Shown piece after piece: positions 17,219 to 42,761 of a stretch of DNA of 64,000 bases (positions within the stretch are counted from its first letter, which is position 1; every line of letters starts with the position of its first letter). The stretch is from positions 926,928 to 990,927 of the forward strand of contig JBBPEB010000029.1 of assembly GCA_039096225.1 (NCBI GenBank), written 5' to 3'. The notes beneath the pieces are model-generated. The model worked only from the letters and a program-made list of their open reading frames with translations, searched no databases and was not told where the DNA came from. This stretch comes from Blastocystis sp. Blastoise. Lineage: Eukaryota > Protista > Bigyra: Opalinata. The position numbers and the translations under genes were made by a program.

Positions 17219-18395
17219 TTAACCCATAATTTTTTTAGTTTGTTCAACAAATAAGAAACAAGCAGCATTAGCAGGAATAGAACGAAGCATACAAGGAACA
17301 AATCCTTTAAAGAAACCTTTCATACCTTGAGTATTCCAACTATAATATATATATATAAATAAATATAAATATATACATTTTAAAGAATAGATATATAAAT
17401 ATAAATATAAATATATACATTTTAAAGAATATATATATAAATAAATATAAATATATACATTTTCTTTGTAATATCCATCATTCCTTTATATGTACGTTCA
17501 CTCTTAGCAATAGAATCACATTGTAAAGTAGATTTAATAACATCAAGAGGATAAATACCAATCCAATAGAAGAAGCCAGCAATACCTCCGGCTAAGAATT
17601 GAATCCAAGGACCTTGCTTATCAATATCTTCTAATGATTGACCAGGTTTTCTATAAGCTCTACGTACCCATTCATAAGAACCAAAATAAAGAGAAACAGC
17701 GATAGTATCTCTATATAAAGTAGGAAGGAAACCTTGGAAAACACCTAAAAGACCATTAGTCTTAAATACTTGTTTAGCACAATCAGCTACACCTTTAAAT
17801 TGAGGTTTATATTCAGGATTGGATTGAGCTTTTACGGCCTATAATAATATTTATTTATATATAATTATTATTAAAAAAATATTAAATAATAATTATATAA
17901 AAAAAAAATAATAATATTTGAAAAAAATATTAAATAATAATAAAAATAAAATCGTAAAAACTATAATAATTATAAAAAATTTACTTGAACTTGAATTTGA
18001 GATTTTAAGAAATCCATAGGACATTCAACAAAAGTTACAGCAACACCCGTAACAGCACCAGCAACAAGAGATTCTTTTATAGAAAGTCTAGGACCATGAA
18101 TCATAGCTTGTTTAACTTGACCAAAAGCAAGGAATTGAACAGCATTATAAAAGATTTGTCCAACTAAAGGAGAAGCACAACCTTTATAGAAACCTTTTAA
18201 ACCTTCAAGCTTTTGAGTTTTACGAACACAATCTAAAGTACCCTTGTAAATTGGGTTATCAGCAGGTTGGGTTTGAATACGAACTTTGATAGTATCAAAG
18301 GGATGACCAACAGCAACAAGACCAATACCACCAATACCTCCTGCAACAGTATCTTTAAAGGCATACCAAAGCTTAGATTCAGATTCCTCAGGCAT
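17219..18395 (-). CDS. Mitochondrial carrier (SLC25), carnitine/acylcarnitine or basic amino-acid carrier-like, 3 exons
   Basis: Three Px[DE]xxK signatures (HPFDTIKVR, CPMDFLKSQ, YPLDVIKST), GFYKGCASPLVG, and a C-terminal GFVPCMLRSIPANAACF. ATG at 18395, TAA at 17219. Confidence 0.93.
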
Positions 18396-19101
18396 TCTCA
18401 CTTCTTAAACTAACAAACAAGGTGTGTTCATAAAGCCAATTTGACACAACAATCCATTCATAAAAAGAGAAGAAAACCACCAGTTCTTTTTCCTTCGATT
18501 CTATTGGATGAACTAGATTCTTACACAGATTATTTGATGAATCAATTACTTATCCAATAATCAATGGTTAACAGAGAACCAATCATTTTCCCCTTTCTTT
18601 GCTTCATTTTTTATTTTTTAATCAATTGTTCCATCATTAAATAAACCGTGAATTATTATTGATTGTATAGTAGAAAAACAAAAATAACCTTGATTATTTT
18701 TTGATATAGAGAGAAACAACCGTTGAATGTTTTCCCTTTGATTTTGTTTCCCCGAAAATCAGAATCATTCTTAGATTTTTTGGACTTTGAAAACAATTGA
18801 CATAAATAATATATTTTCATATATATATATTTTGAATTATTTTCTAAAAAATTCAGTATAACGATGTTTTTTCGTTGTTTTTTAGGAATTAAAAAAATGA
18901 AGATAAACAAGAAAATGTGTGTTTTTAATTTTTCTGTATATCTTCTTGAGTATTCAATATATTATGTTCAATTTTGTATGATATAAACAAGACAATACGT
19001 TTAATACTATAGATAATTATTTAATATTTTAGATCCTAAAATGAAAACAAAATATATACAATAAAAAATGATTTTTCCATAAAAAATCGTAAAGTTGTCT
19101 A

Positions 19102-19540
19102 CAGCCCCTTCCCTGTCACTGGACGAAATTGCCACGTGGCAATTGTCACAAAATTTTCTGACAAAAAAGTGACGATTGCTTATAACTTTTTTGGTTTTCA
19201 TTTTAAAAATATAAAAAAAATATTTTCAAACTCAGCTCATCAAGACACGTCGATTTACACACTTTTCATGAAAAAAGGACCGGGTGACATAAAAAAGACA
19301 ATTCATTCATTGACTATTTTATTATGACATGACAGTTTTTGGCTCAAAACATAATATTTTGGTATAGAATGTATAATTATTTTTAAATAAGTCAAATAAA
19401 ATGTTTTTTGTGACACATGTTGTGACAGATACATGACTGAAAAGGTTATAACTCATTAAATAGCAACAAGCATGAGTTTAATATGTGACTATTTGTGTTA
19501 AGTTGGGTGACAAATAAAAATTATTTTGTGACAAAAGTCA
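19102..19540. repeat. Left TIR and subterminal motif cluster of the hAT element
   Basis: TIR at 19102-19136, perfect 18-bp palindrome AATTGCCACGTGGCAATT at 19127-19144, and about 8 TGTCAC/GTGACA-type motifs up to ~19535. Confidence 0.85.
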
Positions 19541-20023
19541 ATTGCTAAATATATTTTGTTGTAGGTTATGTTAAAGAGTTTTATTTATGTTTATAATGAA
19601 TAATATTGTCAATAAACTCTAAAATAATATTATAAAAAATAATAATGTAATTAAAAAGTTTTTATTTTTGTTAAATATCATGAAGAAGTCTTGTAGGGAC
19701 TCTACAGATATACCCTGACTAGTAATAAAAATTAAATAAACAAAAAACATATTAAAATAATTTTTTTCAAAAACCAAACAAAAAACAACAATATGAACAA
19801 AAGTTGGATTTGAAAAAACAATACCTCCAACAAAATGATTTTTAATAGTCTTATAAAATGGTTTTAAAATGTATTTTATATGAAGAATAAGTCACATAAC
19901 ACAGTTATAATATTTATATTATAAAATATATTGTTTTTATGTTAAAAAGAGAAAAATAAAAAAACGATTAGTAGTCACTTGTTTTATAATTATTGTATCA
20001 CTAAATGGCAAATTAAATAAAGG

Positions 20024-20095
20024 AGTTATTTGGTCGAATGGTTAGTGCTTATAAAATTTTTACATGGTCGACGGATCGATGCTTACAAGGAACTA
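20024..20095 (+). pseudogene. Degenerate tRNA-derived sequence (A box, B box, T-run)
   Basis: TGGTCGAATGGTTA (A-box-like) and GGATCGATGC (B-box-like), weak acceptor pairing AGTTATTT/AAGGAACT, followed by T7. Arms pair poorly. Confidence 0.5.
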
Positions 20096-20989
20096 TTTTT
20101 TTAAACTTTTTTTAGAACTGCTATTTACTAATGATTTAATTTAAAAACAGCTTTGTTTCATTTTTATTATTTTTAACTAATTATTTATGTCATTGATGTG
20201 TGCTTTTTAGTTTAGAATCAACACATCAATAGACAATTTCTTTTCAAAAATTAGTAAATTTTATTTTAAAGCGATTCTAAATATTTGTGGAATGCTATAA
20301 GCGTAATAAAAGGCCATAAATATTAAAATTGAGGATTTCAACTATATTCAAGCCTATTATGTACATCATTACTATTATAAAGCAAATAGGCAAAAAAATT
20401 CCCATTGGTCAGTTTTTGGAAAATGTATTTGATTGGCTAAGGTATACTATAGTTTGTACCCACAACTCCTCTAAACTTACGGGAAGTTAACTTTTGGTTG
20501 AAACACAGTTCAATAGGATATAACATGTAGTTGTGCACCGTATATTTGGTTAAGCGATATTGTTTATAATTAAAAAGTTATTAATAAAAGAACAGAAAAC
20601 ATGATTTTTGAGTCGTTTTTGATTGGCTCTTTGGGATGACCCCTATAAAAATTGTTGACCAGACAATTGAAAAATAAACATGGGGTAAACTTGATTTTTT
20701 CTCAATCCCACAATATACGTTATCCGTGTTTATTCTTTATATTTATCTATTTTTTAATACTTTTTCATATTGAACACGTGAGGCCTTAACGGTCAAATTT
20801 AGATTGTCAATTTGACATGATATTCTGATTCAGGAGGTCAAAAAACCTAGGTGTAGCGATTTTGAGCTCCTGAGGACGATTTTTGAGTGATCGATATTTT
20901 CATCGATCTTCTTATAATCAACTAATATTGTAGAATTGTAATCAATAGGTCATTAAACTACTATAGTAGAAACAGAGTCTTAAAATAAC

Positions 20990-21980
20990 AAGTTTGAGTG
21001 TCACAATTTTGAAAAATGTGAATTAAGTGGTCTTAGAGTAAGAGATTCAATAGAATGACTTTTATTTAGTAAACTAGACTTATAACTCTATACTATGTTA
21101 AAAGAAGATTAAAAATTATGAAGGTCAAAGTGTATGACCAAATGACAAAATGTGTCTTAAAAAGTAAAATGGCTTCTATATGTGTTTAGAATCATATATT
21201 AAGTCTATTCTATGAATAAGAGCTTTAAATAAATAGTTTAAGGTTGTCAAATTTAAAAGAATGTGTAAAACATAGTCTTAAACTATGAATAAAAAATTTA
21301 GAGATATTAATTAGTGTACAGCTGTAGTAGCTCTACAACATATCAAAAGTACAGTTAAAATAATTTTTAGAGAGTGGATGTGTGAAGGGTTGTGACTATT
21401 ATTTAAAATTTATTTTTACTTCAGTTTGAGCAAAATCGTGAATTTCGTGCACTGTAGAAAAATTGAGTCAAAAAAACAACTCTAAGGGTCTTAAATTTAA
21501 AAAAATGTAAAAACGAGTGACTTAGAGGACGAGATTCAATATTTGAGTGTTTATTCATTAAACTAGATTGTATGACCTATATTATGTCAAAAGGAGGGAC
21601 GAAAATATGTTGATCAAAGTGTATGACCAAATGGTAAAGTGTCTTTAAAAGTGTTATGGTGATGCCAGTTGTGTTTAAGGAGTAAATCAAGTTTACTCTT
21701 AAAATATCAGCTTTAAATAACCAGTTAAAGGTTGTCTATTTATCAAAATGTTTTAAAGACTGTCTTAAACAAAGGGATTCAAGAAGTTGACTTTTATTTT
21801 ATACATAACATGTATATATAAACACTTTACTAAAAGAACTTTGGAAAATATTGTGGATGAGTGTTTTGTCAAATGGCAAAGTTGTATCTAGAGTTGATTG
21901 TTTCCATTCATTTTTGTTTAAATCAATGTTTTATGTCTACTCTATAAGAATAACCTTTTAATACTGAGTTTAACGTTTAA
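20990..21980. repeat. Diverged ~244-bp tandem array A (about 4 units)
   Basis: Unit starts of the form '(aag)gttgtc.aattt..aaaatgt....gtctta....agagattcaa' at about 20996, 21240, 21485 and 21729. AAAGTGTATGACCAAATG occurs in alternate units (~21127, ~21616). Confidence 0.75.
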
Positions 21981-22306
21981 AAGTCAACATGTGTGTTTGG
22001 TTTGTTTACTTTTAATTATTAAAATTGAGTTTAAATTGATAAATTATGTCAGACACGTCTATATTGATTGATTCAAACAGTTTTGAGATGACTTAGTTGC
22101 TCGAGTTAAAATGGATTTTGTTCTCATTCTGACTGTTGTTGAGAAGAGGAAGTCTAAAAAAAACTATAAAAAGTTAGATATATGTATGCAATGTCAAAAT
22201 TGAAAAGTATAAAGTAAAATGGATTAAAATGAATTTAAAAAAGAGAATATATATATATAATAATAATATGTAAAAAAAAATATTAAAAAACAGGAGAAAA
22301 ATAACA

Positions 22307-22373
22307 CTTCATGTCAGGAATTGAACCTGAAAACAATCTATAATGATTGCTTCTCTCCTTCTAGAGCATAAAG
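22307..22373 (-). ncRNA. Compact tRNA-like cloverleaf, copy 1
   Basis: Minus strand reads CTTTATG-CTCT agaagg AGAG-aa-GCAATC attata GATTGT-tt-TCAGG ttcaatt CCTGA-CATGAAG, followed by TGTTATTTTT. Transcription is not demonstrated. Confidence 0.65.
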
Positions 22374-22398
22374 GGAGTTTATAAATAATAATAATAAT

Positions 22399-22401
<3 letters not shown>

Positions 22402-22462
<61 letters not shown>
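22402..22462. repeat. (AT)n microsatellite
   Basis: Direct read. Confidence 0.95.
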
Positions 22463-22472
<10 letters not shown>

Positions 22473-22475
22473 ATA

Positions 22476-23170
22476 GGAATGAAGGAAGTAGGAAGAAAGA
22501 AGTAGGAAGTAGGAAGAAAGAAGTAGGAAGTAGGAAGAAAGAAGAAGGAAGAGGAAGAAGAAAGAATGAAGAATGAGGAAGAATGAAGTAGGAAGGATGA
22601 GGAAGGATGAGGAAGAAGGAAGAATGAGGAAGGATGTAAAAGTAGGAATGATGAGGAAGAAGGAAGAATGAGGAAGAAGAAGGAAAAAACAAGGAAGAAT
22701 GATGAGGAAGAAAGAAGTATGAGGAAGTAGGAAGGATGAGGAAGAAGTAAGTATGAAGAATGACGGATGAGGAAGAAGGAAGAATGATGAGGAAGAAGGA
22801 AGAAGGAAGGATGGGAAAGAAGAAAGAAGGAAGCAGGAAGAAGGAAATGATGCATGATGAAGCAGGAAGAAGTAGGAAGAAGTAGGAAGAATGCCAGATG
22901 AGGAAGAAGGAAGTAGGAAGAATAAGGAAGACGGAAGAAGGATGAGAAAGAAGGATGAGAAAGAAGGAAGAAGTAAGTAGGATGAGGAAGAAGGAAGAAT
23001 AAGGAAGGAAGAATGACGGATGAGGAAGGAAGGAAGAAAGAAGTAGGAAGGATAAGAAAGACGGAAGAAGAAAGAAGGAAGAAAGAAGGAAGAAAGAAGT
23101 AGGAAGGATAAGGAAGAAGTAAGAAGTAAAATGAAGAAGAAAGAAGGAAGAAAGAAGAAAAAAGAACAAG
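22476..23170. repeat. ~700-bp polypurine tract (AGGAAG/GAAGAA/GATGAG-based)
   Basis: The plus strand is almost entirely A/G. This explains the Phe/Leu/Ser-rich ORFs on the minus strand. Confidence 0.9.
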
Positions 23171-23850
23171 AAGACTATAAAACCTATATATAATAGAAAA
23201 CCTATAAAAATAAATAAATAATAAATAAATAATAAATAAATAAATATAATAAATAAATAAATAAATAAATATAATAAATAAATAAATATAATAAATAAAT
23301 ATAATAAATATAATAAATAAATAAATAAATATAATAAATAAATAAATAAAAAACATAAATAAATAAAATAAAAAACATAAATAATAAATAATAAAAATGA
23401 AAATAATAAATAAAATATAAATATATACCTAATAGATTAATCTGAAACCACAGACTAAAGAAGAATGACATGAAAAAACGAAGACGACAACACATCAACA
23501 ACATTTTCTTTCCTATAGAATAAAAATAATTAAAAACTATTTAATAAATGATATAAAAAGACAAAATAAATAATATAGATAACAAAAATATAAAATAAAA
23601 CAAAGTAATGAGAGAATTAAAAAACAAATACTATAAAAATAAATATATATTATATACCTGACACAAAGTAATCCAATTCACATAGCCGTGACCACTTCAA
23701 GAACTCTTTACTACAACAACCAAGACAAATACAAGAGAATCCTATAAAAAAGTGTATTATTTTGAATAAATAAATAACTATATAGATAGATAGATATAAT
23801 GCAATATAAAACAATATCAAATAAATAAATAAAACATACTCAGTCAATCA
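23170..23850 (-). other. Spliced unit with two 84-nt phase-1 exons running into the pyrimidine tract; function unknown
   Basis: Exons 23658-23741 (GFSCICLGCCSKEFLKWSRLCELDYFVSG) and 23429-23512 (GKKMLLMCCRLRFFMSFFFSLWFQINLLG), each flanked by TAG and GTATAT. A further acceptor lies at ~23183-23202. Confidence 0.5.
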
Positions 23851-24099
23851 ATATAATCAAATATATAAAAAATGTAAAAAACTATGTTTTTTGGGTACCC
23901 AAAATAATTTTAAATATAAATGACCCATTTATTACTTTTGTAAATAAATCAATGAAAACTCAAGGGTTCTTATGATTTCTATTAAGTTTTAAGAAGCATA
24001 TTTTAAAAAAAGACCCTTTTCTTTAAAAGTGGAAATATAAACACAATTTTATATTAAGAGAGAATACTTATTTTTTATAATTAAATTGATATCTAAGAT

Positions 24100-25290
24100 G
24101 CCTCAGAAGGCATGATGCTATCAAGATTGAAGTGTGTAGATGGAAAAATATACTTTTTTTCAAAAATTTCAGGTTCTTCTACTCAATAGGATCCAGTTGT
24201 GTATGTTCTTAGTCTTGGTGTTACTTGCTCTGATGGTCTTAAAGGTATATATTTTCGATTTCTTTTTTTTTAATTATTTATTATATTGTTTTAGGTTCTT
24301 CTATGTTATTTGTATCATACGGAGGCTGTGGTGTTGCCTGTTATGCTAACTGTGAAGGTATGTTGTCAATGATTTGTTTTTATTTTTTTATTTTTTCTTA
24401 TATATAGGTTCTTCTGTTGTTTTAAATGATGGTAATGGTTCTAATGATGCAGATGTAGGTTCTTCTTGCTTTATAGATGGTATGTTACCAATCATTTGTT
24501 TTTTTTTTTTATATTTTATTATTATTTTTTTATTATTTCTCTCTATATATAGGTTCTTCTGATGCTTTCAATACTGCTGTTGATGTTATTGGTGATCAGA
24601 CAGACTGCTCCTATGGTATTAAAGGTATATATATATTGTCATTCATTTATTATTATTTTTTATTGATTTATTATTTGTCTATTACTGTTTCTTTATAGGT
24701 TCTTTTATTGATGTGGGTATGGTTGTTGAAGATGATAATAATTAAGGTATGCTATTTTTAAATTTAATTTAGTTTATTATTGTTTTTTATTTATATATAG
24801 GTCCTTCTATTCTTATGGAGTCTTCTATTATAGGTAATGATACAGGTATATTCTTATTTCTTCCTTTCTTTTTTTTTAATTTATTAATTATCTTATCATT
24901 ATATATAGGTTCTTCAAGTCAGTTAAGATATCATGGTTATTCTTCTGTTCCTTCTTTAGAAGGTATATATATTTTTATTGTTTATATATTTTTTATTATT
25001 ATATTATATATAGGTGTCTTTTCTAATAGGGGATCTTATCACCCTAATGTTAGCTTTCATTTTAATAATAAAAATGTATCTAAAGGTATATATATATATA
25101 TATAACAAATATTTATAATATTTCTTTTAATATATCTATATCTTATATCTATATAGTGATGGTGTGAATAGTTTTTAATACTGAAGGTATATATATATAT
25201 GTTAGATATATTTATTATACTATCTCTTATTATATATATATATCTTTTATCTATATAGGTTCTCTTAGTGTTATGGTTATGTTTAGATTT
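24100..25290 (+). pseudogene. Array of at least 9 symmetric phase-1 micro-exons, mostly starting G-S-S; three exons carry in-frame stops
   Basis: Exons at 24173-24244, 24295-24357, 24408-24479, 24553-24624, 24699-24746, 24801-24845, 24909-24962, 25014-25085 and 25157-25186 (72, 63, 72, 72, 48, 45, 54, 72, 30 nt), all bounded by AG and G|GTAT. Stops: TAG at 24187, TAA at 24743, TGA in the 30-nt exon. Confidence 0.65.
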
Positions 25291-25689
25291 TTTTTTTTCT
25301 TTTGCTTATTATTATTATTATTTTTCACATTTAATAGCTTTCTATTATCTGCTTTCTTTATATTATTTATTTATTTATGCTGTTGTTATCGTTTTAGCTA
25401 CTCTATATTTAAATGTTTTCTTTTGTTCTATTTTTGTTTTGTTCTTTTTCTTTTTTTTTATTTAAATTGTGTCGACTATTAAGATAATTCTTCAATTACT
25501 TAATATATTAAATAGTGTCAAGTTTTTAAATGTTTGGATTCAATTTAATTTAAAATATCTATTGTCCACTTTTAACTTTATTTAGTATAACTGATTTAAT
25601 ACTGTCAATGATTGAGATATTTAAGTTTTGTTTTTCTCCACTAATTCATCTTGCATATACATATTATTGAGTAAATACAAAATCATAAA

Positions 25690-26430
25690 AGTAAGTTTAA
25701 GGTTTTAAAATTTAAAAAATTGTAAAAAAGGTTCTTAAACTAAGAGATTCGAAATTCTAAAAATGATTTAATATACACTAAGCTAAATTCTACAACATAC
25801 TAAAAATTAAGAGAATTTCATTTTTGAAAAGTTAATTAACAATGTGTTTGAGTTGTCTAGAAATTTTAAAGAGTTAGCTTCTTTGTTTAAAATTGTGTTT
25901 TTATTATACTATGAAAATTTTGACTTTTAAAAACAAGTTTAAAGGGGTTTATTTTTTTAAATGTAGAAATAAGTTACTCAACGGACGAGATTCAATATAA
26001 AACATTTTATTTGTCAAACTATGATTTATAGTCTAAATTATATTAAAAGAAGTGACAAAAATACTCTTGAAAAAGTGTATGACCAAATGTAAAATATTTA
26101 TAAAGGGTGTTAAAATGGTAACTAATGTATTGATAGAGTTATGTTGAGTATAGTGTTTAAATATTAGAGTTTTAAATTAACTATAAGTGTGTCAATTTTT
26201 CAAAATGTATTAAAAAGCGTCATGAGGTCAGAGATTCAAGACATTAAACTATAATTAATAAATAATACAATGAGATCTATACTGTGTGAAAGTTATGTCT
26301 AAAACGATTTTGATACAGTGGATATCGAAATGGTAAAGTCTCTCTAAAAGCGATATTGTTGATACTTTAAGTATAAAAATTCTATTTAGATTGATTTCAT
26401 TAATATTAATTCTAAAGCTATGTGTTTAAG
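25690..26430. repeat. Diverged ~244-bp tandem array B (about 3 units), same family as array A
   Basis: Unit starts at about 25699, 25942 and 26186. Shares GGACGAGATTCAATA and AAAGTGTATGACCAAATG (~26072) with array A. Confidence 0.75.
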
Positions 26431-26757
26431 TCGTTAATGTGAAAATAAATGTTGATATTGTTGTGTTAAATTTGTTTTAGTTTTATGAAATGGTTAAAAA
26501 TAGTTTAAACTACTTTATTCTAATCTATTTAAATTAATTTAATAAAATAAAAATATTTTTCAATACTTCACATTGTGACCCATTTCGAGATTTATTAGCT
26601 TTAGAAATTCCATAATGATTAAAAAAGTAACTAAACTATTTATAAATACAAAATATATTTAAAAAATAATAAATAACAAATATAATGAATCAAACAAGAA
26701 TTTATATATTTTTTTTTGTTTTTAGTTTTTCAGATATTATTTAAATAATCTATTTAG

Positions 26758-26827
26758 TTCTTATATCAGGAATTGAACCTGATTACAATCAATAAATGAT
26801 TGCTACTCTCCATATAGAGTATAAGAA
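26758..26827 (-). ncRNA. Compact tRNA-like cloverleaf, copy 2
   Basis: Minus strand reads TTCTTATA-CTCT atatgg AGAG-ta-GCAATCA tttat TGATTGT-aa-TCAGG ttcaatt CCTGA-TATAAGAA. Confidence 0.65.
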
Positions 26828-26995
26828 GTGTTATTAAAATAATATATATAATATATAATATATAATATATAATAAGTAACATATTATAGATAATATTTAA
26901 TAAATAATATATATTATATAATATATAATATATAATATATAATAGATAAAAAGGAAAGAAAGTAAATAAAAACCAAACAGTTATTATTCATTGCA

Positions 26996-27042
26996 GCCGC
27001 GGTCCGGTGCCGTTAGGCCCCGGACCTGCGGCGTGACCCTAG
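26996..27042 (+). mobile_element. Helitron-type 3' terminus (GC-rich hairpin followed by CTAG|T)
   Basis: Hairpin GCCGC-GGTCCGG-t-GCC gtta GGC-c-CCGGACC-t-GCGGC at 26996-27032, a 6-nt spacer, CTAG at 27039-27042, then T. The 5' TC end was not located. Confidence 0.65.
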
Positions 27043-27067
27043 TTTTAGTAAGAAATAAAATTGAGAA

Positions 27068-27140
27068 AATAGTTGGTATAGTTGACCAGCGGTGCAACTA
27101 TTGAATTGGGTGTCGCTGGATCGAATCTCATGTAGGGCAT
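27068..27140 (+). pseudogene. Degenerate tRNA-derived sequence upstream of the transposase
   Basis: TAGTTGGTATAG (D-loop-like), GTCGCTGGATCGAATC (variable loop and B-box-like), then T-runs. Also an 8-bp stem AATAGTTG/CAACTATT. Confidence 0.4.
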
Positions 27141-27580
27141 TTTTATTTTTACAGTCATTTTTATTGATTTTAATATTTACGTTTTTTAAATTTTATATTT
27201 GACTTTCTAGACATAAAAGTATGTTAGACAGATGAGCCAATATGTATTCATTTAATTATTAAAATAAGGGACGATTCTAAAATTTTGAAGTTAATTGCCA
27301 TTCATCGCTCATCCATTACCTTCAAAAAAATGAAAGTATCACCAATCGATAGAGCGCATGTTTTACACCCTAGCTGGACAAATGAGACCTATTAAAGAGG
27401 AATTAAGCAGTTCAAACGCCGTTTTAAAACAAAAAACGGTCATTGAAATAAGATTGTTTTAATTTTTTTAAAAGTTTTTTTACACTTTTATTTTTTCAGT
27501 AAAAATATAAATATTACCGTGAATTTTAAAAGTTATTTTAATATATTTTTTTTATATATATTTATTTCTCCATTATAAAA

Positions 27581-30500
27581 ATGATATCAGCGTCATTTAT
27601 TATATTTTCATTACCGATATATGTTAGACTATATATTGGTCAAACAAAAGAGGAATATTATGAAGATACAAATGGTAAGTATTCAATAGATGATCTTATT
27701 CCTCATTTTAAGGTATGTTTATTATTCTTTATTCTTTATTATTATATAGAATGGAAGATCAATGAAATGTAAAGAATATAAGCATTTCATTGACTCTTTA
27801 AAAAATTCAAATTTTAATATTCCTTATGTGATAGAAGGTATGTACATATTATTCATTTATTATTATTTAGAAATTGAAAAGCAACAAGATTCCTTTGCTA
27901 CTAAAAAGAATAAACATTTTTCGGTAATATGTTCAGGTATATTTTTATAGTTTATATTTCAATATTATAGATAACTTGTCGCTTACTAATAGAATTGAAA
28001 AGACTATTACAGACTCTAATATGCTTCCAGTTGATGCTACTATTATTAAATGTAGTAATGATGGAATTATTAATGGTATATATAAATATATAAGTATATA
28101 TATATTTATATAGTATCAACTAAGCCAGAAAGGTCAATAATTGATAAATTTATTACTGGTAATGGTTATAGACTACATTATATGTATTGACATATAATAT
28201 TTTATAGATGGAAGTAATAATAGTGATCATTTGAATCCAGATATACAAAACAAAAATATTCAAAATAATGATATACTAAGTATTAATGGAATATCTACTG
28301 GTATATAATTTTTTTTAAATATATTTATGTATTTATATCATTATATTTGTATATAGTTAGTGATAAGTCAAAAGTAAAGCAGACAGATGAATTACAAAAA
28401 CAAACGTCAATTACATCATTCTTCAGTATGTTGCATTATTATATATGCTAATAGTATTAATTATTATTTATGAATAACTATCTTCTTATAGATAGTGATA
28501 TTGCTCAATCTACTTATCAAAAACATACAGCAAACTTATCATCAATAACAGTTCAAAAACTTTGTACTCTATCTCGATTTGTTTCAGATGGTTTCTCTTC
28601 TTTAGCATCATCCTCTCTTTCATTAGTAACAGATATAGATAAATTATATAGCCTTCTTCCAGAACAGTATCATTTTGAGCAGAATAATAGTATTGATTGT
28701 ATTCCTGTAACAAAATCTGTAAACAAATCATCAAATCAAAATACAATTTCATCAGGTATAGCTTCTTCTTCAGCTGCATTTAGTTATGATATATCGATAA
28801 TACAAGGAATAATAGATAATAATGGCATATTTTTAAAGATTATAAAAGACATTATTGAACAGAGTTATGATGCAAATATATGTATGAAAGATATTATACA
28901 AAGATGGAGATGTTACGTAGATATTCATTTACCTGAATTAATAAAACTTATTTCCTATATAACTGATGATCATCTCTTCCTTGATGTGGAAATGTGTAAA
29001 TGTCCAATCCTCAAAAGTCTACTGAAACATAATGATACCTATAATAAATTTATCATGTATAATACTGATAATCAAAAGTGGTATTGTGTATCTTGTTTGC
29101 TTTTTTCAAATGAGCCTAATCTTCTTGGAGAGATATATTCAGCATCTAATATTAATAATCATAAGAATTTGAAGTTTCATAAAGATTCGATGAAAAGCTT
29201 TAAGTCTTTATTGAATAACCTACAAAACAATCAATCACTTCTTATCACTAATAATCATTCTGTATCTACAAGTAATAAAAAAGTTTGGAAGTTTTTCTTA
29301 TTAAAAGTGTTCAACTGTATATGTTTATGTCTCTCGAGTATCCACTCGATATATGGAAATACTACTAAGATTTATTCTCCTCATTCTGGTATATTTTTGA
29401 AACTATTACTCCTTACAGCGAAGAATGATTCTTTATTTAAACAATTTATTGAAGAAAATAAAAATATATATCAATCGGTTAGATCTACACAGAAATGGAT
29501 AAGAATAATTTCAGATAATCTTTCATTAACACTTAGAAATAAGGTAGGAGATAGAATATATAGCATTACTACTGATGGAACTACATGCCAAAATATTGAA
29601 CAAATGATTATAACAATTAGATACTGCGACGATACGTTTGCTATACATCAATACTTCTTGAGCCTTATGGAAGAAACTTCTTCATCTGGAATTGAGCTTG
29701 CTAAAAGTATCAAATTCTGTTTAAAAAAAAAATGTTTAAATGTCAGTGATTTATGTTCAGTATCTTTTGATAATTGTATATCTAATACGAGTAGTACATA
29801 TGGAATTATTTCTGGTCTAGAGCTTCCTTCTGGAACCGTTTTAGGTTATGGATGTCGTGCACATCTTCTAAACTTAGCTTTGGTTGACTTGCAAAATAAT
29901 GTTGTTGACTCAACTAGGTATATTTCACTAATTAATGATATTGCAGTATCTTGGTCAAGGTGTTCCCGTCTACGAGTATTAATAAAAGGTAATAATTTTA
30001 ACTTGTATACTCTTCCTCAAGTATCTCAAACTAGATTCATAGCAAGATACTTCTCTATACTTCCATATATAGCTCATCCAAAACAAACTCTATGTAAGAT
30101 TTTCCTACTTTATTTCTATTCATACAATAAAAAAAGTGTTTGTTATAGCAATGCTGAGGCAATGCTTAAATCATTAGGTGAGATATCGTTTCATTTGTTT
30201 TTAGAATGCTGGTTTAGAATATTGTCTGTAGTGAATCATGCATCTTCTTTGCTACAATCTGAGTCACTTACTGTAAAGGATTCAGTGAAAATAATAATGG
30301 AATTATATGACAATATTTCGTGTCTATCATCTTCCAATAATATTAAAGAAATTTATTTAAATGCAATACAAAGACGCGAATACATTTATGGTCTTCTAAG
30401 TGATTTGGTTGATTGCTTTCAACAGAATAAGTATGATAATACTAGTGATATTTCTATTGGTAGAATATTAATTATTATGAAGAAATTTCCTGAATATTCT

Positions 30501-32150
30501 AGTGAATATAATAAATTATCTGTTGATGAATGGAAACTAAATTATAAAGAAATGAAAAGATATGACAATGAAGAAGAAAATGGTATGTTGACGCATAATG
30601 ATGTAATTGAATCTATTGACACTATTGACTGTACAACTTCTTTGCATTCTTCTTATTCAATTAAGGAGTCTATTAGATCGATTCTCAACTACAGAGATGA
30701 ATCTGATAAAGAGAATTTCTCTAGTATGTGTAAACATAATGGAATTGACATTCCAAAAAGAAAAAAGTATATATTTTATAGATATTATTTATAATTTAAA
30801 GTTTTATTAGCTTTTATATTTAATATATCAATAGAGTTAGACAAGATGTATTAATTAATAATGATAATAATCCTAAAGTGGCTCCTGTGATAGAAAATAG
30901 AGAAAGAATTGCTTCCGAATTTGCAAAAAATAATCGAGTAGTGTCAAGCCTCAATTTATTTACATCAAAACAATTAGTTGATGCTATTATAAGTGATAAA
31001 ATAAAGAAAGAAGATATTAGGAACGTTGATAATACAAATATGAGCGCCATTCCTGATAATGAATTTCCTGAAATTTTTCAAATAAACGAAAATGATATCA
31101 ATATTCTTTATAGTTCTCTTATTTCCTCTCAAAATCAAACAGAATGTATTAATTCATCATGTCCAAAGAAAATGAAAGTGAATCAATTTCAGTCAACAGA
31201 TCAGAATCAAACCAACTTGATACTAGGAGTTGCTCAACAAAAAAGAAGTCGTGGTAGACCCAAAAAGACTCTAACTGGTGCAGATTCAAGTGTTAACAGT
31301 CCAAAAAGAATTGTAGAAAATGAAAATAGTGGTTTCAAAAGAAATACAGACTATCATGATGATAATACTTGTAACAGATCTTTAATGGACCAGAATTTGA
31401 ACACCCAAGATGATGATAAAGGCGAAGTATCAACAGATGAGAAACGTAAAAAAGTTATTTCAATTATTTTATCTCAGAAATACACGTATGTATTATATTA
31501 TTACAATATTTAATATCTGTAGTATTTTTTTAGAAAATGAGAAAAACAATCTGTATCGCTTCTCGTCAAATTTCAACTTAATGATTCTTCAGCTGAGACA
31601 AAATATTGTTGATCGTCTTTTTAAATCAATTATACAAGATCTTTCACTTTCTTATTTCGTTACACCATCATTAATTATTGAAACAGAAGTTCCTTGCCAA
31701 AGATTATTTATTGATACATTTTTCAAGCTATTTTCTTCTAGATTTCAGCCTAATTATTGTTTTGAAATGTCGAATATCATGCAATATCTAAAAAGAATGA
31801 TTAACTTATCGTCTTCAGTCACTTCACTAGTAGATCTTGTAAAAATGGAGTTCCACGAGTTTTCTCTTTACTACGAAATGACTGTTAGTTTATGTCTTAC
31901 AGTCAACCCTACTAGTATTAAGAGTGAGACTTCTTTCAGTACGTTAAAAAGAGTAAAATCTTATTTACAGAATGGAATGAAGGGTGATTTATTGGACGCT
32001 TATATGTCGTCTACCTGTAATGAAGTTTTAATGGATTCTCTAGATTCTTCTGCAATCGTAGATGAGTTTATGAAGAATTTGCACTTGGTACCTTTAAGTA
32101 ATTCGCTGATCCAAAAGGTTTTAAATATGGAACTTGTTAAAAGTTTATGA
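27581..32150 (+). CDS. hAT transposase (ZMYM1/Tip100-like type), intron-containing, apparently intact
   Basis: Zn-finger-like WYCVSC...H...H, first catalytic D in YSITTDGTT...EQMIITIRY, second D in VSFDNC, CxxH motif GCRAHLLNL, SQTRF, and a C-terminal dimerisation domain PTSIKSETSFSTLKRVKSYLQNGM containing the catalytic E. Several short 5' introns plus introns at ~30768-30834 and ~31486-31533. The start codon is approximate. Confidence 0.92.
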
Positions 32151-32652
32151 ATTTATGTTATCATTATTATTTACTTAATTATTAAGTCTTTATTATATTT
32201 ATATGATCGATATTATGTATAAATTATTTCTATTATTTAAATTTATTTCAATATAATTTCCTTCTTTTTTCAATAAATGTTTTACCTAGGATTCTTTATA
32301 AAGAATCAACGATATTCAATAATTATATACCAAATAAAATGATAAATAAACTAAAAATATAACGATAGAATCATTATGTATGAATATAATGTAAAAAAGT
32401 TATCTTTACAAATAAATAATCAATTTATAATGTTGAGATATGCAAAAATAAATGATTACATGAATTATGACAGTGAAATTTTTTTTAAAGTTGTTCCTTT
32501 TGAATGAATTACTGACAAAAGTATCTCAAAATTATGAACATATCTTTTTTTTCACCAATTTAAAAACCTAAATATAATTAAATATTAAAACATAATATAT
32601 AATAAATAAATTAGAAAGAGTTTATATTATAATAATATAATATCATATTTCT

Positions 32653-32717
32653 TTCAAGTCAGGAGTCGAACCTGATATAAATCCAAATAGGATTCTAAAT
32701 CTCCATCAGATCTTGAA
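32653..32717 (-). ncRNA. Compact tRNA-like cloverleaf, copy 3 (diverged sequence, same fold)
   Basis: Minus strand reads TTCAAG-ATCT gatgg AGAT-tta-GAATCC tattt GGATTT-ata-TCAGG ttcgact CCTGA-CTTGAA, with a canonical B box GGTTCGACTCC. Confidence 0.65.
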
Positions 32718-35368
32718 CACAAATTTATATAACATAAATATTTATCTTTAGGGAATGAATCACAGTATTTTCAAGAGAAATAGAATTTGTTCGTGATACA
32801 TCATTTAAGGAAATAGAATGACTATCATCATGTAAAAAGATTTTCGGAAATAATAAATAATAATAAAAGAATCGAATTAAAGTAGTTAGCAAGTATAATA
32901 TGGTATATATGGAAAACGTGCAATTAGTAATATTATATACAAATATCCATATTGAAATAATACTTAATTCCTTTGAATATAGTAAAACATATAAAAGCTA
33001 ATAGGAAAAGAAGTAACTGTGTTAATAATAAAAGAAAACGCCAAACATAGAATATAAGATAGAAAAAGATGCAATATATGCTAAAATACAGTTATATATA
33101 GAAACAATTAGGTAGAATTAAAAACAAAATATAAAAGTACATAGTATGTACAAAAATAAACATGAACATCTAATAATGGAGACAAAATGAGTTGTATTAA
33201 ACATATCCATGTTTTCTAAAAGACAATAATAGAAATAAATAAAAATAAGGATAATCAGAAGATTAAGTACACCGAAATGAAATTTAAATAATAGTTAGGT
33301 GTACTATCAGAATATAATATTTAATTCATGAGAAATGTAGAAGTAAGTGAATAGAAAGGAAAGAAACAAGTGGATAAAACATCGATAGTAAGAAAGGTAT
33401 GATATATAGGAAAGATTCGAGAGTATTACAGTAGATAGAAACTATTAGTAGAAATAAAACTATTTTAATAGATTGTACAATTCATATTAGTAGATAGATA
33501 AATAATAATACAGAAGTAGGTTAAGGAAGCTAGAAAATAATGAAATGAAAGAAAACATAACAAACAGTTACATATTAAATCGACATTTAACAATAACATA
33601 AAAAGTTGTATAAGGATAATCAAATGAACAATAGATACAATCGGCGATATAATAAGAAGAGATATATGAAGAAAAAAAATAAGTGTTGATGAATGAAGTA
33701 AGATGGATCTCAATTACATTTAAATTAGTAGAAGGAAATCAGAAAAGAATAAAAAGAATTTAAGATGAAGTTTAATAAAAACAGGCATAATAAACTTAAT
33801 ATTAAAATAATAAATCGTGCTTTTTCAATAATAAAATCAGATAGATTAGACATATATGGCAGAATAAGATTCATAATAATAGAGAAACAGAGAAGAAGAA
33901 TTAGCTCTCATTGAATTAATCAATGAATACGAGACTTTAGTCAATGAATAGTTAAAAGCAGAAGTATAGTAGGAAATATAATTCGTACAATTCAAAATGA
34001 AGAACAAACAAAAGCACAACCAGGACACCATAATAAAAGGAATATGAACAAAATCAGGGATGAATAGACATAATTATCATCAAAAGGAGAATACTGATTG
34101 AATAAAGTATTATTAATATGAATATATTAATAAGGAAGATAAGAACGACTAAAAGAAACAAATTCACATCATTAGATAATAGAAGATCAAGTTCTAATGA
34201 ATAATTAGTTTGAATAAAGAAAGAAGCCAGGAGTGTATCAGTCACTATGTAAAAGAAATGAGTAAGATTTAAGGTAATAAAAACCAAAACAATGTTCATA
34301 TATTAGAAATATTTGAGATGAGAATCTAAAACGAAAAATAATATATAAATCATATATAAAGTGGTAAAAATTTAAAGGATATAGCGATATTTATTATAGA
34401 AATCATTATCAAATGAAATATCATGATAAAGACAAAGAAACTTAGAGAATGCTAAATACATTTTTTCTCCTAAAAGATTTATGACACCAAATCAAAATAA
34501 TAAATAGGAAACAATTGAATAAATATTAGTTTGTATAATATTTAAGAAGAATATATGATCATATATACATATGCAAAGAATATTCCAATTCTATTTCATC
34601 CCATTAATCAATATTATCTATATGAATCAAATGTATTTGATAGACCTATAAAAAAATTATATAGCAACTAAAAGTACAAGGAATGAATCAATTGTAATAA
34701 GTATTAATATAACTAAAAGAATTACATATATAGTTTAACCTAAAATCAATACAGAAGTAATAATTATATTCTTGAAGTATATCAATAGAAAATATCTTAT
34801 TGAGAAAATGCTAAAACAGATTGGTATTAATATTTTGTAGTGATTTAAAAAAAATTCTCATGAATTTCTATAAACATTTTTTATTGAATTATCAGCTAGA
34901 CGATCATATTTGTATAAGTTATTATGATAAAACATTCAATACAAATATACTCTATTCATTTCATATAAGAAAGTAACTAATTTGTGGATTGATGTGTATT
35001 CAAACTAAATCAAGATATAAAGACATTCATTGATTAGGTGTTTCCACAGAATTAATTGCAAGGAATTAAACTAGGGAGTCTTGTAAAGTTTGTCATTGTT
35101 GAGTATTTCTGAAAGTATTATTAAACATTTTAAAGAATCATTGTCTGTTATCATATTTTCAAATACTTTCATTATCAAAGTCATATTAAGCAAAGAAATC
35201 AATGTAGTCACAAATCATGTCATGATTCTTGACATTTTTTTCCTTTTGTTGTTAAGTACGTTATTATTATCTTTAGAATTCTTACAATATAACAAGTATT
35301 CAATTTCATAGAAATCACTTACGGCTTCAGTTTATCTGAATTCAGCATTATTAAGTTAGGCTGAAAAA

Positions 35369-35420
35369 GTGTCACAAAAAAATAGCGTGGCAATTGTCAC
35401 AAAAGTCAGGGAAGGCTCTG
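35369..35420. repeat. Right TIR and subterminal motifs of the hAT element
   Basis: GTGTCACAAAA and CGTGGCAATTGTCACAAAAGTCAGGGAAGGCTCTG, followed directly by the TSD. Confidence 0.85.
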
Positions 35421-35650
35421 GTTGTCTATAAGAAATTATTTTTTTTAATAATTGTGAGAATATTGATTTTACAAGATAATTATTATTATTTCTCGTGATT
35501 TATTTTTTAGGCAGGTCATTTTTCTTGTAAAACTTTTCTTGTTTGAGAATTCTTCCAATTTAAAAGCAAGTTGGTATTTTTATACTATTAAATATTATGA
35601 TAAGAATGATCTTAATCTAATTATTGTAGAATTATAGCCAAATTGAGAAA

Positions 35651-41195: not shown

Positions 41196-42761
41196 ATGGT
41201 GAAAGAGAAGGTAGAATTTGATGCGAATAAGATTGGTGATATTCAGAAGGATGTAATTCATTTTGAAAGACTGATTGGTGATTTGATTGGTATTTTAAGT
41301 AAGTCAATAAGTTTCTGTATTCATTCAGGTGAGTCCGTGAATGAATTAGTGAATCGATTAACAAGAAATTGTGAAGGAATGAATGATAAGAATGGTGATG
41401 ATCCACATATAATTATCCAAGAATCATCTTTTCTGAATGAAAATGATTTAAATATGAATAATAATGATAATGGAATTGATTATATTCGATTCACTAATAA
41501 TGGTCCAGTTTATTCTCTTCCTAAAAGAGTAACAAATAGTTTAGTGGGTAGTTATTTATATGAACAATGTCAAGAAGAAAAAAGAACTATTTATGGTGAA
41601 GTTTATTTGGATTATCGTGGTGATGAAACAGTAGCTCCTTTATTAATTGATTCTTTAATGAATAAGAAAGTGAATATTGATAAATTGAAATTTGGAGATC
41701 AAATTGATTTATTAAATCTATTTGAATATTGTGAATTACCTATTCCTGAAGAATTAATGAAAGTTTATTACCAAAGAGATCACAATATTAAGAAATATGA
41801 AGAAGATGATGATGTTATTCTTTATATAAATGAAAAGAAAGATGATATATTAAGAGATTATTGGAAGAAGAATGAATTATGGAATAATATAGTAAATGAA
41901 TATGCTGATGGATACGTATATTTTGATGAAAAGAATAATGAAATGTATATGAAGAAGGATTATAAATATATTGATCATATATATGAATATGTTCAATATA
42001 ATTGTATTTATGTTTCTGAAGAAGAAGCAAAAAATATAAATAGAGAATTATTAGAGAATGAAATGTATAAATTATTTGGTGATAAGGGAAAAGAAAAGGT
42101 AAAAGAAGGAATGATAACTCCTCAATGTTTTGTTGGCACAAAAATAATAATGAATTATTCAATGGAAATTCAACTAGTTAATTGGCTTGGTAAAGAAAAG
42201 AAATGGAAATTATTATTTAGATATTTATTTTTTAATATTATATCATTATATATAGAGCAAGTGAGCATAATTATTCAAAAGACGAATTCCATAAATATTG
42301 TGATAATCAAGGAGAAACAGTAACTATAATCAAATATATAGGTCATAATAATCATATTAATATATTTGGAGGATATACAGATCAAAGTTGGACTGGTTCA
42401 GGTGGTATATTTATTTATGTAATTATTCAATATAATTTATATAGGTTATAAATCTTATTCTAAAGAATTTCTATTTACTTTAAGTAATGAACATGGTATT
42501 TCTCCTACTAAATATGATTATACACAAAGTGATAGAAGATATGGTATATATTGTTCTTCTTCTTATGGTCCAACATTTGGAGGTGGTTTTGATATCTATA
42601 TATCTGATCAATGTCATAGTAATACTAATTCTTCTTGTAAAGCATCTTCTTATTCTCAAGTGAATACTCCTCAAAAATCATCCTTATTTGTAAATACTAA
42701 TGATGCTAATTCTAGAAATCAATTTACAGTAGAAGATTATGAAGTATGGGGAAGAGCATAA
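41196..42761 (+). CDS. TLDc-domain protein with BTB-like N-terminal regions; first intron has a non-canonical donor
   Basis: WLGKEKKWKLLFR/ASEHNYSKDEFHKYCDNQGETVTIIK...IFGGYTDQSW / ...FLFTLSNEHGISPTKY...GPTFGGGFDIYISD...FTVEDYEVWGRA* is a classic TLDc motif set. Confidence 0.88.

Follow-up and report, generated by a model that had tools for sequence, protein, structure and literature searches.

The 64-kb window analysed here, a stretch of one contig of Blastocystis sp. Blastoise to which all window-wide counts below refer, contains a hAT DNA transposon that encloses three short cloverleaf elements, named E1, E2 and E3. All three are on the minus strand and have the same leftward orientation (Table 1). 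An initial annotation, made from the letters alone, had described three such elements with their stems and had placed them inside a transposon. We recover the elements and stems as described, and the boundaries of the transposon can now be given: 14-bp terminal inverted repeats (TIRs), identical at 12 of 14 positions, and an identical 8-bp target-site duplication (TSD) on both sides (chance 1.4e-5), both as expected of a hAT element with short TIRs. We conclude that E1-E3 are a real, selected and previously unannotated set of tRNA mimics within this large hAT transposon.

Table 1. Features of the transposon and of its three cloverleaf elements (positions within the window).
Feature	Position	Strand	Basis
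Left 8-bp TSD and left TIR	19094..19115	+	
hAT DNA transposon, 16.3 kb, enclosing E1, E2 and E3	19102..35420		TIRs and TSD
Old 1.2-kb internal duplication, first copy, made up of ~244-bp repeats, a spacer, E1 and an AT repeat	21230..22420		
E1, compact tRNA-like cloverleaf with a perfect B box; acceptor stem of 7 bp, 8-9 linker absent, loop of 6 nt in the anticodon position; a T5 run follows after 6 nt	22307..22373	-	
Predicted spliced unit running into E1 (two 84-nt exons, pyrimidine-rich repeat exon, (AT)n)	22379..23741	-	GT-AG introns and strand skew; transcription inferred
Cargo gene, ten mini-exons (30-72 nt), nine with a length divisible by 3, in-frame stops	24173..25480	+	
Old 1.2-kb internal duplication, second copy, made up of ~244-bp repeats, a spacer, E2 and an AT repeat	25690..26880		
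E2, compact tRNA-like cloverleaf and, through the block duplication, a paralogue of E1; ~750 nt upstream of transposase, pointing away	26758..26827	-	
A pair of GC-rich hairpins, between 165 and 290 nt upstream of E2	26993..27119		z ~ -3.6 on both strands
Spliced hAT transposase gene, 1394 aa according to protein-database annotation	27581..32150	+	TTDG/FDN/CxxH/SETSFS motifs
E3, more diverged cloverleaf; 500 nt past the transposase stop, pointing towards transposase	32653..32717	-	
Region rich in pyrimidines, probably an intron-less gene for a membrane protein that has decayed	32725..34400	-	Skew, ORF tiling; last ORF stop 7 nt before E3
Right TIR and right 8-bp TSD	35407..35428	-	

The transposase itself also places the element in the hAT group. 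It has the catalytic motifs, which we take to be the hAT set, as well as a C-terminal dimerisation region. Its domain matches are weak, DUF4371 at E 0.005 and Dimer_Tnp_hAT at E 0.03, both under the curated cut-offs; DUF4371 is precomputed in all eight of its homologue matches. These are protein clusters matched by a 337-aa piece of the transposase at 59-100% identity, every one of which its source assigns to Blastocystis sp. Blastoise; at least seven of them, at 59-75% identity, represent further transposases. One distant protein also matches. Further copies of the transposon are present in the same organism. Because the TSD and the open reading frame (ORF) are intact, the data suggest that the whole 16.3-kb element was inserted recently.

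In each of the three elements the acceptor stem abuts a 4-bp D stem with no connector, and the 5-6-nt D loop ends in GG. The T arm is a 5-bp stem with a canonical 7-nt loop, and the acceptor and T stems together give a stack of 12 positions. Compared with a canonical tRNA, the 7 + 5 bp stack, the D-loop GG and the TTCRA T loop are all present, except that the first acceptor position of E3 is a G-A mismatch. The 2-nt connector and the 5-bp anticodon stem with a 7-nt loop, U33 and purine 37 are absent. The initial annotation had concluded from the geometry that these are not normal tRNAs, and the lack of an 8-9 linker and the 6-7-bp anticodon-position stem hold good; its loop length and variable region had to be widened, to 5-7 nt and 1-3 nt, respectively.

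That the three share one fold is clear from several results. Folded in isolation, each takes the four-arm shape, with z = -3.4 for E1, -4.1 for E2 and -1.55 for E3, the last not significant by itself (15 of 200 shuffles are equally good), and in all three the minus strand folds more stably than the plus strand. A covariance model built from E1 and E2 only recovers E3 with 47.8 bits (E 6.6e-9). The constant T arm and D-loop GG of the initial annotation are likewise found, the T stem being invariant. A structural descriptor, written after the elements had been seen, matches E1, E2 and E3 in the window and nothing in 100 block-wise dinucleotide shuffles. Standard tools overlook the elements: ARAGORN at default calls none of them, Rfam has no match in the window at E up to 1, and on small windows at E up to 10 it has neither a tRNA nor a mascRNA/menRNA match. 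Weak local Rfam matches, such as Plastid-ycf2 on the plus strand, were rejected as the T arm read backwards.

E1 and E2 can be compared against their own surroundings, because they belong to the two copies of an old duplication whose flanks are now identical at 678 of 1014 positions (67%). Degenerate tandem repeats of ~244 bp with conserved short motifs (20960-22000 and 25680-26370) lie downstream of E1 and E2 only, after ~400 nt. In their acceptor stems E1 and E2 have half of the bases (7 of 14) in common, which does not exceed the level of the flanks, and yet all seven pairs are kept, three of them by double changes; under neutral substitution an exact calculation gives this pairing a probability of 0.002-0.02, depending on the transition bias. 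The core made up of the D, anticodon and T arms behaves differently, with 47 of 53 positions identical and 18 of 19 G/C columns kept, versus 109 of 328 G/C columns in the flanks (p 8e-8). Since the acceptor has diverged like the flanks and is still fully paired, while the core is conserved far above them, the acceptor stem is maintained as a structure and the core as a sequence.

When E3 is added, 66 of the 69 cells in the three-row alignment are paired, and 8 of the 23 pairs have changed on both sides. Five of these double changes are in the acceptor, one in the D arm, two in the anticodon-position arm and none in the T arm, whose invariant stem contributes nothing to covariation. Sliding the partners leaves at most 48% paired. 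In a control of 500 shuffles, which ignores relatedness, none reaches the observed value for four of five measures and nine reach it for the fifth. Over all stems the neutral probability is 2e-5 to 4e-3 for E2 versus E3 and 9e-4 to 0.04 for E1 versus E3. The initial annotation had taken the covariation to mean that selection acts on the RNA structure and that the copies are not decaying pseudogenes. The three-row alignment and the E1/E2 comparison support this, with the qualifications that the copies are not independent, E1 and E2 being one duplicated block, and that five of the eight double changes fall in one stem.

Could the elements nevertheless be decayed tRNA pseudogenes or heads of short interspersed nuclear elements (SINEs), with an apparent covariation that arose from small numbers, from the choice of fold or from template-switch repair of inverted repeats? 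A tRNA ancestry is plausible, as the three-copy model also matches ordinary tRNAs, at 20-30 bits in 14 matches across 15 loci, and three copies are few. However, the low neutral probabilities for the acceptor and the core do not fit random decay, no body or tail is common to the three elements, and the three-copy model finds no fourth copy, intact or broken, in the window. We therefore regard this explanation as very improbable.

A different kind of decay would be that the mimics had a function in an earlier setting, either a host locus or another mobile element, and were captured as cargo that is now passive. The decayed look of the neighbouring cargo, with its in-frame stops and frameshifts, the old internal duplications of the transposon and the failure to find relatives in viral, prokaryote and metagenome scans would all agree with such relics. 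But every acceptor pair was kept in E1 and E2 while the flanks of the duplication diverged by a third, which implies that selection lasted through most of the time that E1 and E2 have spent in this arrangement, and E3 is intact beside a decayed ORF. We consider passive relics unlikely, although clearly less so than pseudogenes.

The scans for relatives used exact and narrow patterns and viral, prokaryote and metagenome collections, and so they say little about eukaryote genomes. Three patterns matched 7, 0 and 8 loci in viral contigs; at 12 of these 15 the match is a tRNA according to ARAGORN, and the other three (L006, L007 and L014) were set aside, as they have no linker-less fold. Two exact patterns each gave no matches in GTDB genomes and in JGI metagenomes, and a search of viral contigs with the transposase alignment yielded no locus. 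Among the viral loci, L003, L004 and L005 (983-1056 in each) are near-identical phage tRNAs, two of which have the anticodon TCG and one TCA; the TCA form is possibly an opal suppressor that arose by one change. The match at 1001-1040 in L006 and L007 is a phage T-arm-like hairpin within a non-tRNA fold that ARAGORN does not call.

Another alternative is that E1-E3 are tRNAs of an unusual type, which decode or suppress stops for cargo genes that have been recoded. At a lowered threshold ARAGORN calls E2 a tRNA-Stop(tta), readable with the anticodon UUA, and TAG, TAA and TGA all occur in frame in the cargo gene of the plus strand. Short connectors and a 6-bp anticodon stem are known in tRNA-Pyl and in some mitochondrial tRNAs. 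The varying length of the anticodon-position loop rules against decoding, however: the loops are 6 nt in E1, 5-7 nt in E2 and 5 nt in E3, with no common anticodon and no purine 37. The silence of default ARAGORN and of Rfam points the same way, and upstream of E3 there is no constant reading phase, so that read-through would not open the region. We hold this the least credible of the alternatives, with hardly any chance of being correct.

What the elements do is best approached from their surroundings. Upstream of E1, two 84-nt exons (23741-23658 and 23512-23429) and two GT-AG introns (23657-23513 and 23428-23202) are predicted on the minus strand, and the pyrimidine excess of that strand stops at 22474, 100 nt before E1. 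Directly upstream of (AT)n and E1 there is a 700-bp low-complexity array, purine-rich on the plus strand (22475-23174). Upstream of E3, a 1.7-kb pyrimidine-rich stretch keeps its skew as far as 32806 (support 32746-32992), which leaves 30-275 nt to the element, and the region is tiled by hydrophobic ORF pieces with 14 frame switches, versus 20.1 +/- 2.8 in shuffles (P 0.024). Its three-base periodicity is local, with a shifting phase, and this region is probably a decayed membrane-protein gene; a single recoded ORF was rejected because the reading phase is not constant. Known introns of the window have a sense-strand T excess of the same kind, which speaks for the processing role proposed below. 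A stop as close as 7 nt to E3 is not rare in such AT-rich DNA. The ORF pieces near E1 and E3 gave one weak Pfam match below the cut-off (18 pieces), nothing in NCBIfam (8 pieces) or in a homologue search, and a best value of 0.89 in the ESM Atlas, which is a lead only. Two of the three elements, E1 and E3, would be positioned at the 3' end of predicted minus-strand gene-like units.

A position of this kind would suit a processing signal, one of the three roles that the initial annotation had offered, beside small RNAs and TFIIIC barrier elements. As judged from sequence and fold, the tentative interpretation that we prefer is that E1-E3 are structure-conserved substrates of the host RNase P (PRORP) and RNase Z, comparable to mascRNA and the t-elements, and that cleavage at them terminates transcripts from the minus strand of the transposon. 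What the sequences themselves establish is the fold, the compensated acceptor, a conserved D-loop GG and T loop, the stack of 12 acceptor and T positions, a shared orientation and the location between the TIRs. According to PMC10941002, PRORP reads the elbow formed by G18-U55 and G19-C56 together with its distance to the acceptor end, stramenopiles use PRORP in all compartments, and plant PRORP cleaves tRNA-like structures at mitochondrial mRNA ends. The features kept in E1-E3, namely the D-loop GG, U55/C56/R57/A58 of the T loop and the stem length, coincide with what PRORP reads. Minus-strand transcription would run through each element, PRORP would cut at its 5' edge and RNase Z at its 3' edge, the upstream RNA would gain its 3' end at the element, and a non-decoding RNA of 65-70 nt would be released, possibly with CCA added. 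More speculatively, and from the layout only, cuts at E3 and E2 might keep antisense transcription out of the convergent transposase and cargo genes, and a cut at E1 might stop transcription that runs towards the left end.

Several observations weigh against processing. The copies are only three, two of them from one duplication, with the fold defined on the same sequences, and for E1 versus E3 the acceptor covariation alone is not significant (0.06-0.24). When 40-100 nt of AU-rich flank are added, the minimum-free-energy structure opens the acceptor of E1 and E3, although not that of E2. E2 has neither a skew change nor a gene-like unit upstream, but an AT repeat and two GC-rich hairpins, and the units before E1 and E3 look non-coding or decayed, so that the benefit of cutting them is unclear. 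The longest A run within 40 nt upstream of the elements is 2-3 nt, so that nothing A-rich is available to form a protective triple helix. The D and anticodon arms are more conserved in sequence than RNase P or RNase Z should require, the pattern GGTTCRANYCC of the B box has three exact matches in the window, which are E1, E2 and E3, and a T5 run at +6 of E1 is what one expects of an RNA polymerase III (Pol III) gene.

The last three of these points are also the ones that pull towards stand-alone Pol III genes, in which the B box and a weak A box would recruit TFIIIC and the precursor would be trimmed by RNase P and RNase Z to a small non-decoding RNA that acts as a decoy or regulator; the occupied sites might also be chromatin barriers on either side of the transposase gene, which is flanked by E2 and E3. 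AT microsatellites upstream of E1 and E2 could act as TATA elements. The other signals are poorer. The A box has one, two and three mismatches across the three elements, being poor in E3, and the spacing from GG to the B box is 29-30 nt, below the 31-36 nt found in 36 of 38 ordinary tRNAs. The first T4 run comes at +92 behind E2 and +63 behind E3, so that neither has one within 60 nt, and the three elements together show no enrichment over the background median of 49 nt. A barrier that works as DNA only would leave the compensated acceptor stem unexplained. (A sigma-70 promoter scan was set aside, the window being eukaryotic.) With two of the three elements at the ends of predicted minus-strand units, two of three without a close terminator, weak A boxes and short spacing, the balance tilts to excision from longer transcripts over stand-alone Pol III genes, which we rate as rather unlikely, though ahead of relics. 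Both explanations predict the same RNA of 65-70 nt.

A broader proposal, which we offer with more reserve than the processing role of the elements, is that large hAT transposons of one family have evolved a tRNA-punctuation system of their own, in which PRORP and RNase Z of the host are drawn to non-decoding mimics set near the genes for the transposase and the cargo and there cut up both antisense and cargo RNAs. This might be the first mascRNA-like module outside vertebrate MALAT1/NEAT1 on a DNA transposon. A literature search found no report of a tRNA mimic in a DNA transposon or of TFIIIC in protist transposons, and nothing relevant for Blastocystis; it covered main texts and few subscription papers, so that an earlier description or a repeat library could be missed. 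Related papers that it brought up concern MALAT1 and RNase P, among them PMC12941219, PMC10869381, PMC11286949 and bioRxiv 10.64898/2026.01.19.700226.

Other parts of the transposon and the window display some additional features. The predicted N-terminus of one transposase paralogue, P0004, matches 27358-27456, upstream of the transposase gene, at 94% over 33 codons, versus 54-65% in the transposase core. This hints that the segment may be a conserved promoter or other signal and that the region beside E2 is common to other copies. The mini-exons of the cargo gene mostly begin with Gly-Ser-Ser codons; it contains three in-frame stops and has a hydrophobic end. It is divergent from the minus-strand unit of E1 across a perfect palindrome (23889-23904). 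The hairpins upstream of E2 (26993-27140) are a candidate structured RNA: the first is followed by CTAG and then T, a Helitron-end-like arrangement, and after the second comes a plus-strand T run. Rfam has no match of note for them (26993-27119), and a ribozyme like that of hepatitis delta virus, an H/ACA small nucleolar RNA and a plus-strand tRNA were rejected as misfits by eye against their consensus features.

The G+C content of the window is ~20%, and its right end carries telomere-type repeats, an array of mixed TTAGGG and TTAGG units (62215-64000) that is ~27 kb from the transposon. Host genes are found on both sides of the insertion, one for a mitochondrial carrier just to the left (17422-18404) and one with a TLDc domain to the right (41196-42761). 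Low G+C and long introns, in agreement with the window, have been reported for tortoise Blastocystis (PMC10690189), and the accessible text of that report mentions neither tRNA nor hAT.

If the processing role is correct, E1-E3 would be a convergent version, in a DNA transposon of a protist, of tRNA-like processing signals, and mobile elements would have co-opted RNase P and RNase Z to manage their own transcripts. The elements would also be natural minimal PRORP substrates with no 8-9 connector, whose cut sites are predicted to the base, and they would point to a class of elements that both ARAGORN and Rfam overlook.

How do E1-E3 compare with known systems? They share with tRNA-derived SINE heads and extra TFIIIC sites a B box in a tRNA-related context, which follows the SINE/TFIIIC B-box consensus. 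The differences are the absence of a shared body or tail, the lack of a close terminator in two of three and the compensated acceptor stem; dispersed copies with TSDs, as expected of SINEs, are not seen either, since none lies outside the transposon within the window. The ENE/dENE motifs of hAT elements such as rice TWIFB1 are similar as structured RNA carried by a hAT, with a link to the 3' ends of transcripts. ENEs, however, are U-rich internal loops that bind poly(A) on the sense transposase mRNA (PMC13541005), whereas E1-E3 are cloverleaves on the opposite strand.

The nearest comparisons are with two other systems. The mascRNA and menRNA, tRNA-like structures at the 3' ends of MALAT1 and NEAT1 that PMC12941219 and PMC10869381 describe from vertebrates, are compact non-decoding cloverleaves whose most conserved part is the T arm, as here, and RNase P and RNase Z release them from longer RNAs, at whose 3' ends they lie (PMC12941219 and bioRxiv 10.64898/2026.01.19.700226). 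Unlike them, E1-E3 have a longer anticodon arm, and their processing is predicted, in a stramenopile DNA transposon. A position at the 3' end of an RNA polymerase II transcript would fit E1 and E3, by their predicted splice sites and skew, but not E2. A full MALAT1 module fits poorly, as the triple-helix partner is absent: besides the short A runs, the upstream folds have by eye no such U-rich internal loop. The t-elements of plant mitochondria and mitochondrial tRNA punctuation involve tRNA-like structures at mRNA ends that are cleaved by PRORP (PMC10941002), and E3 resembles them in that only 7 nt separate it from the stop codon of an ORF with no intron. E1-E3 differ in being nuclear and transposon-borne, and the ORF upstream is decayed, with no recognised homologue. 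Having no Rfam match and no triple-helix tract, E1-E3 are members of neither system, but mascRNA/menRNA and the t-elements are the closest analogues of the action proposed for them.

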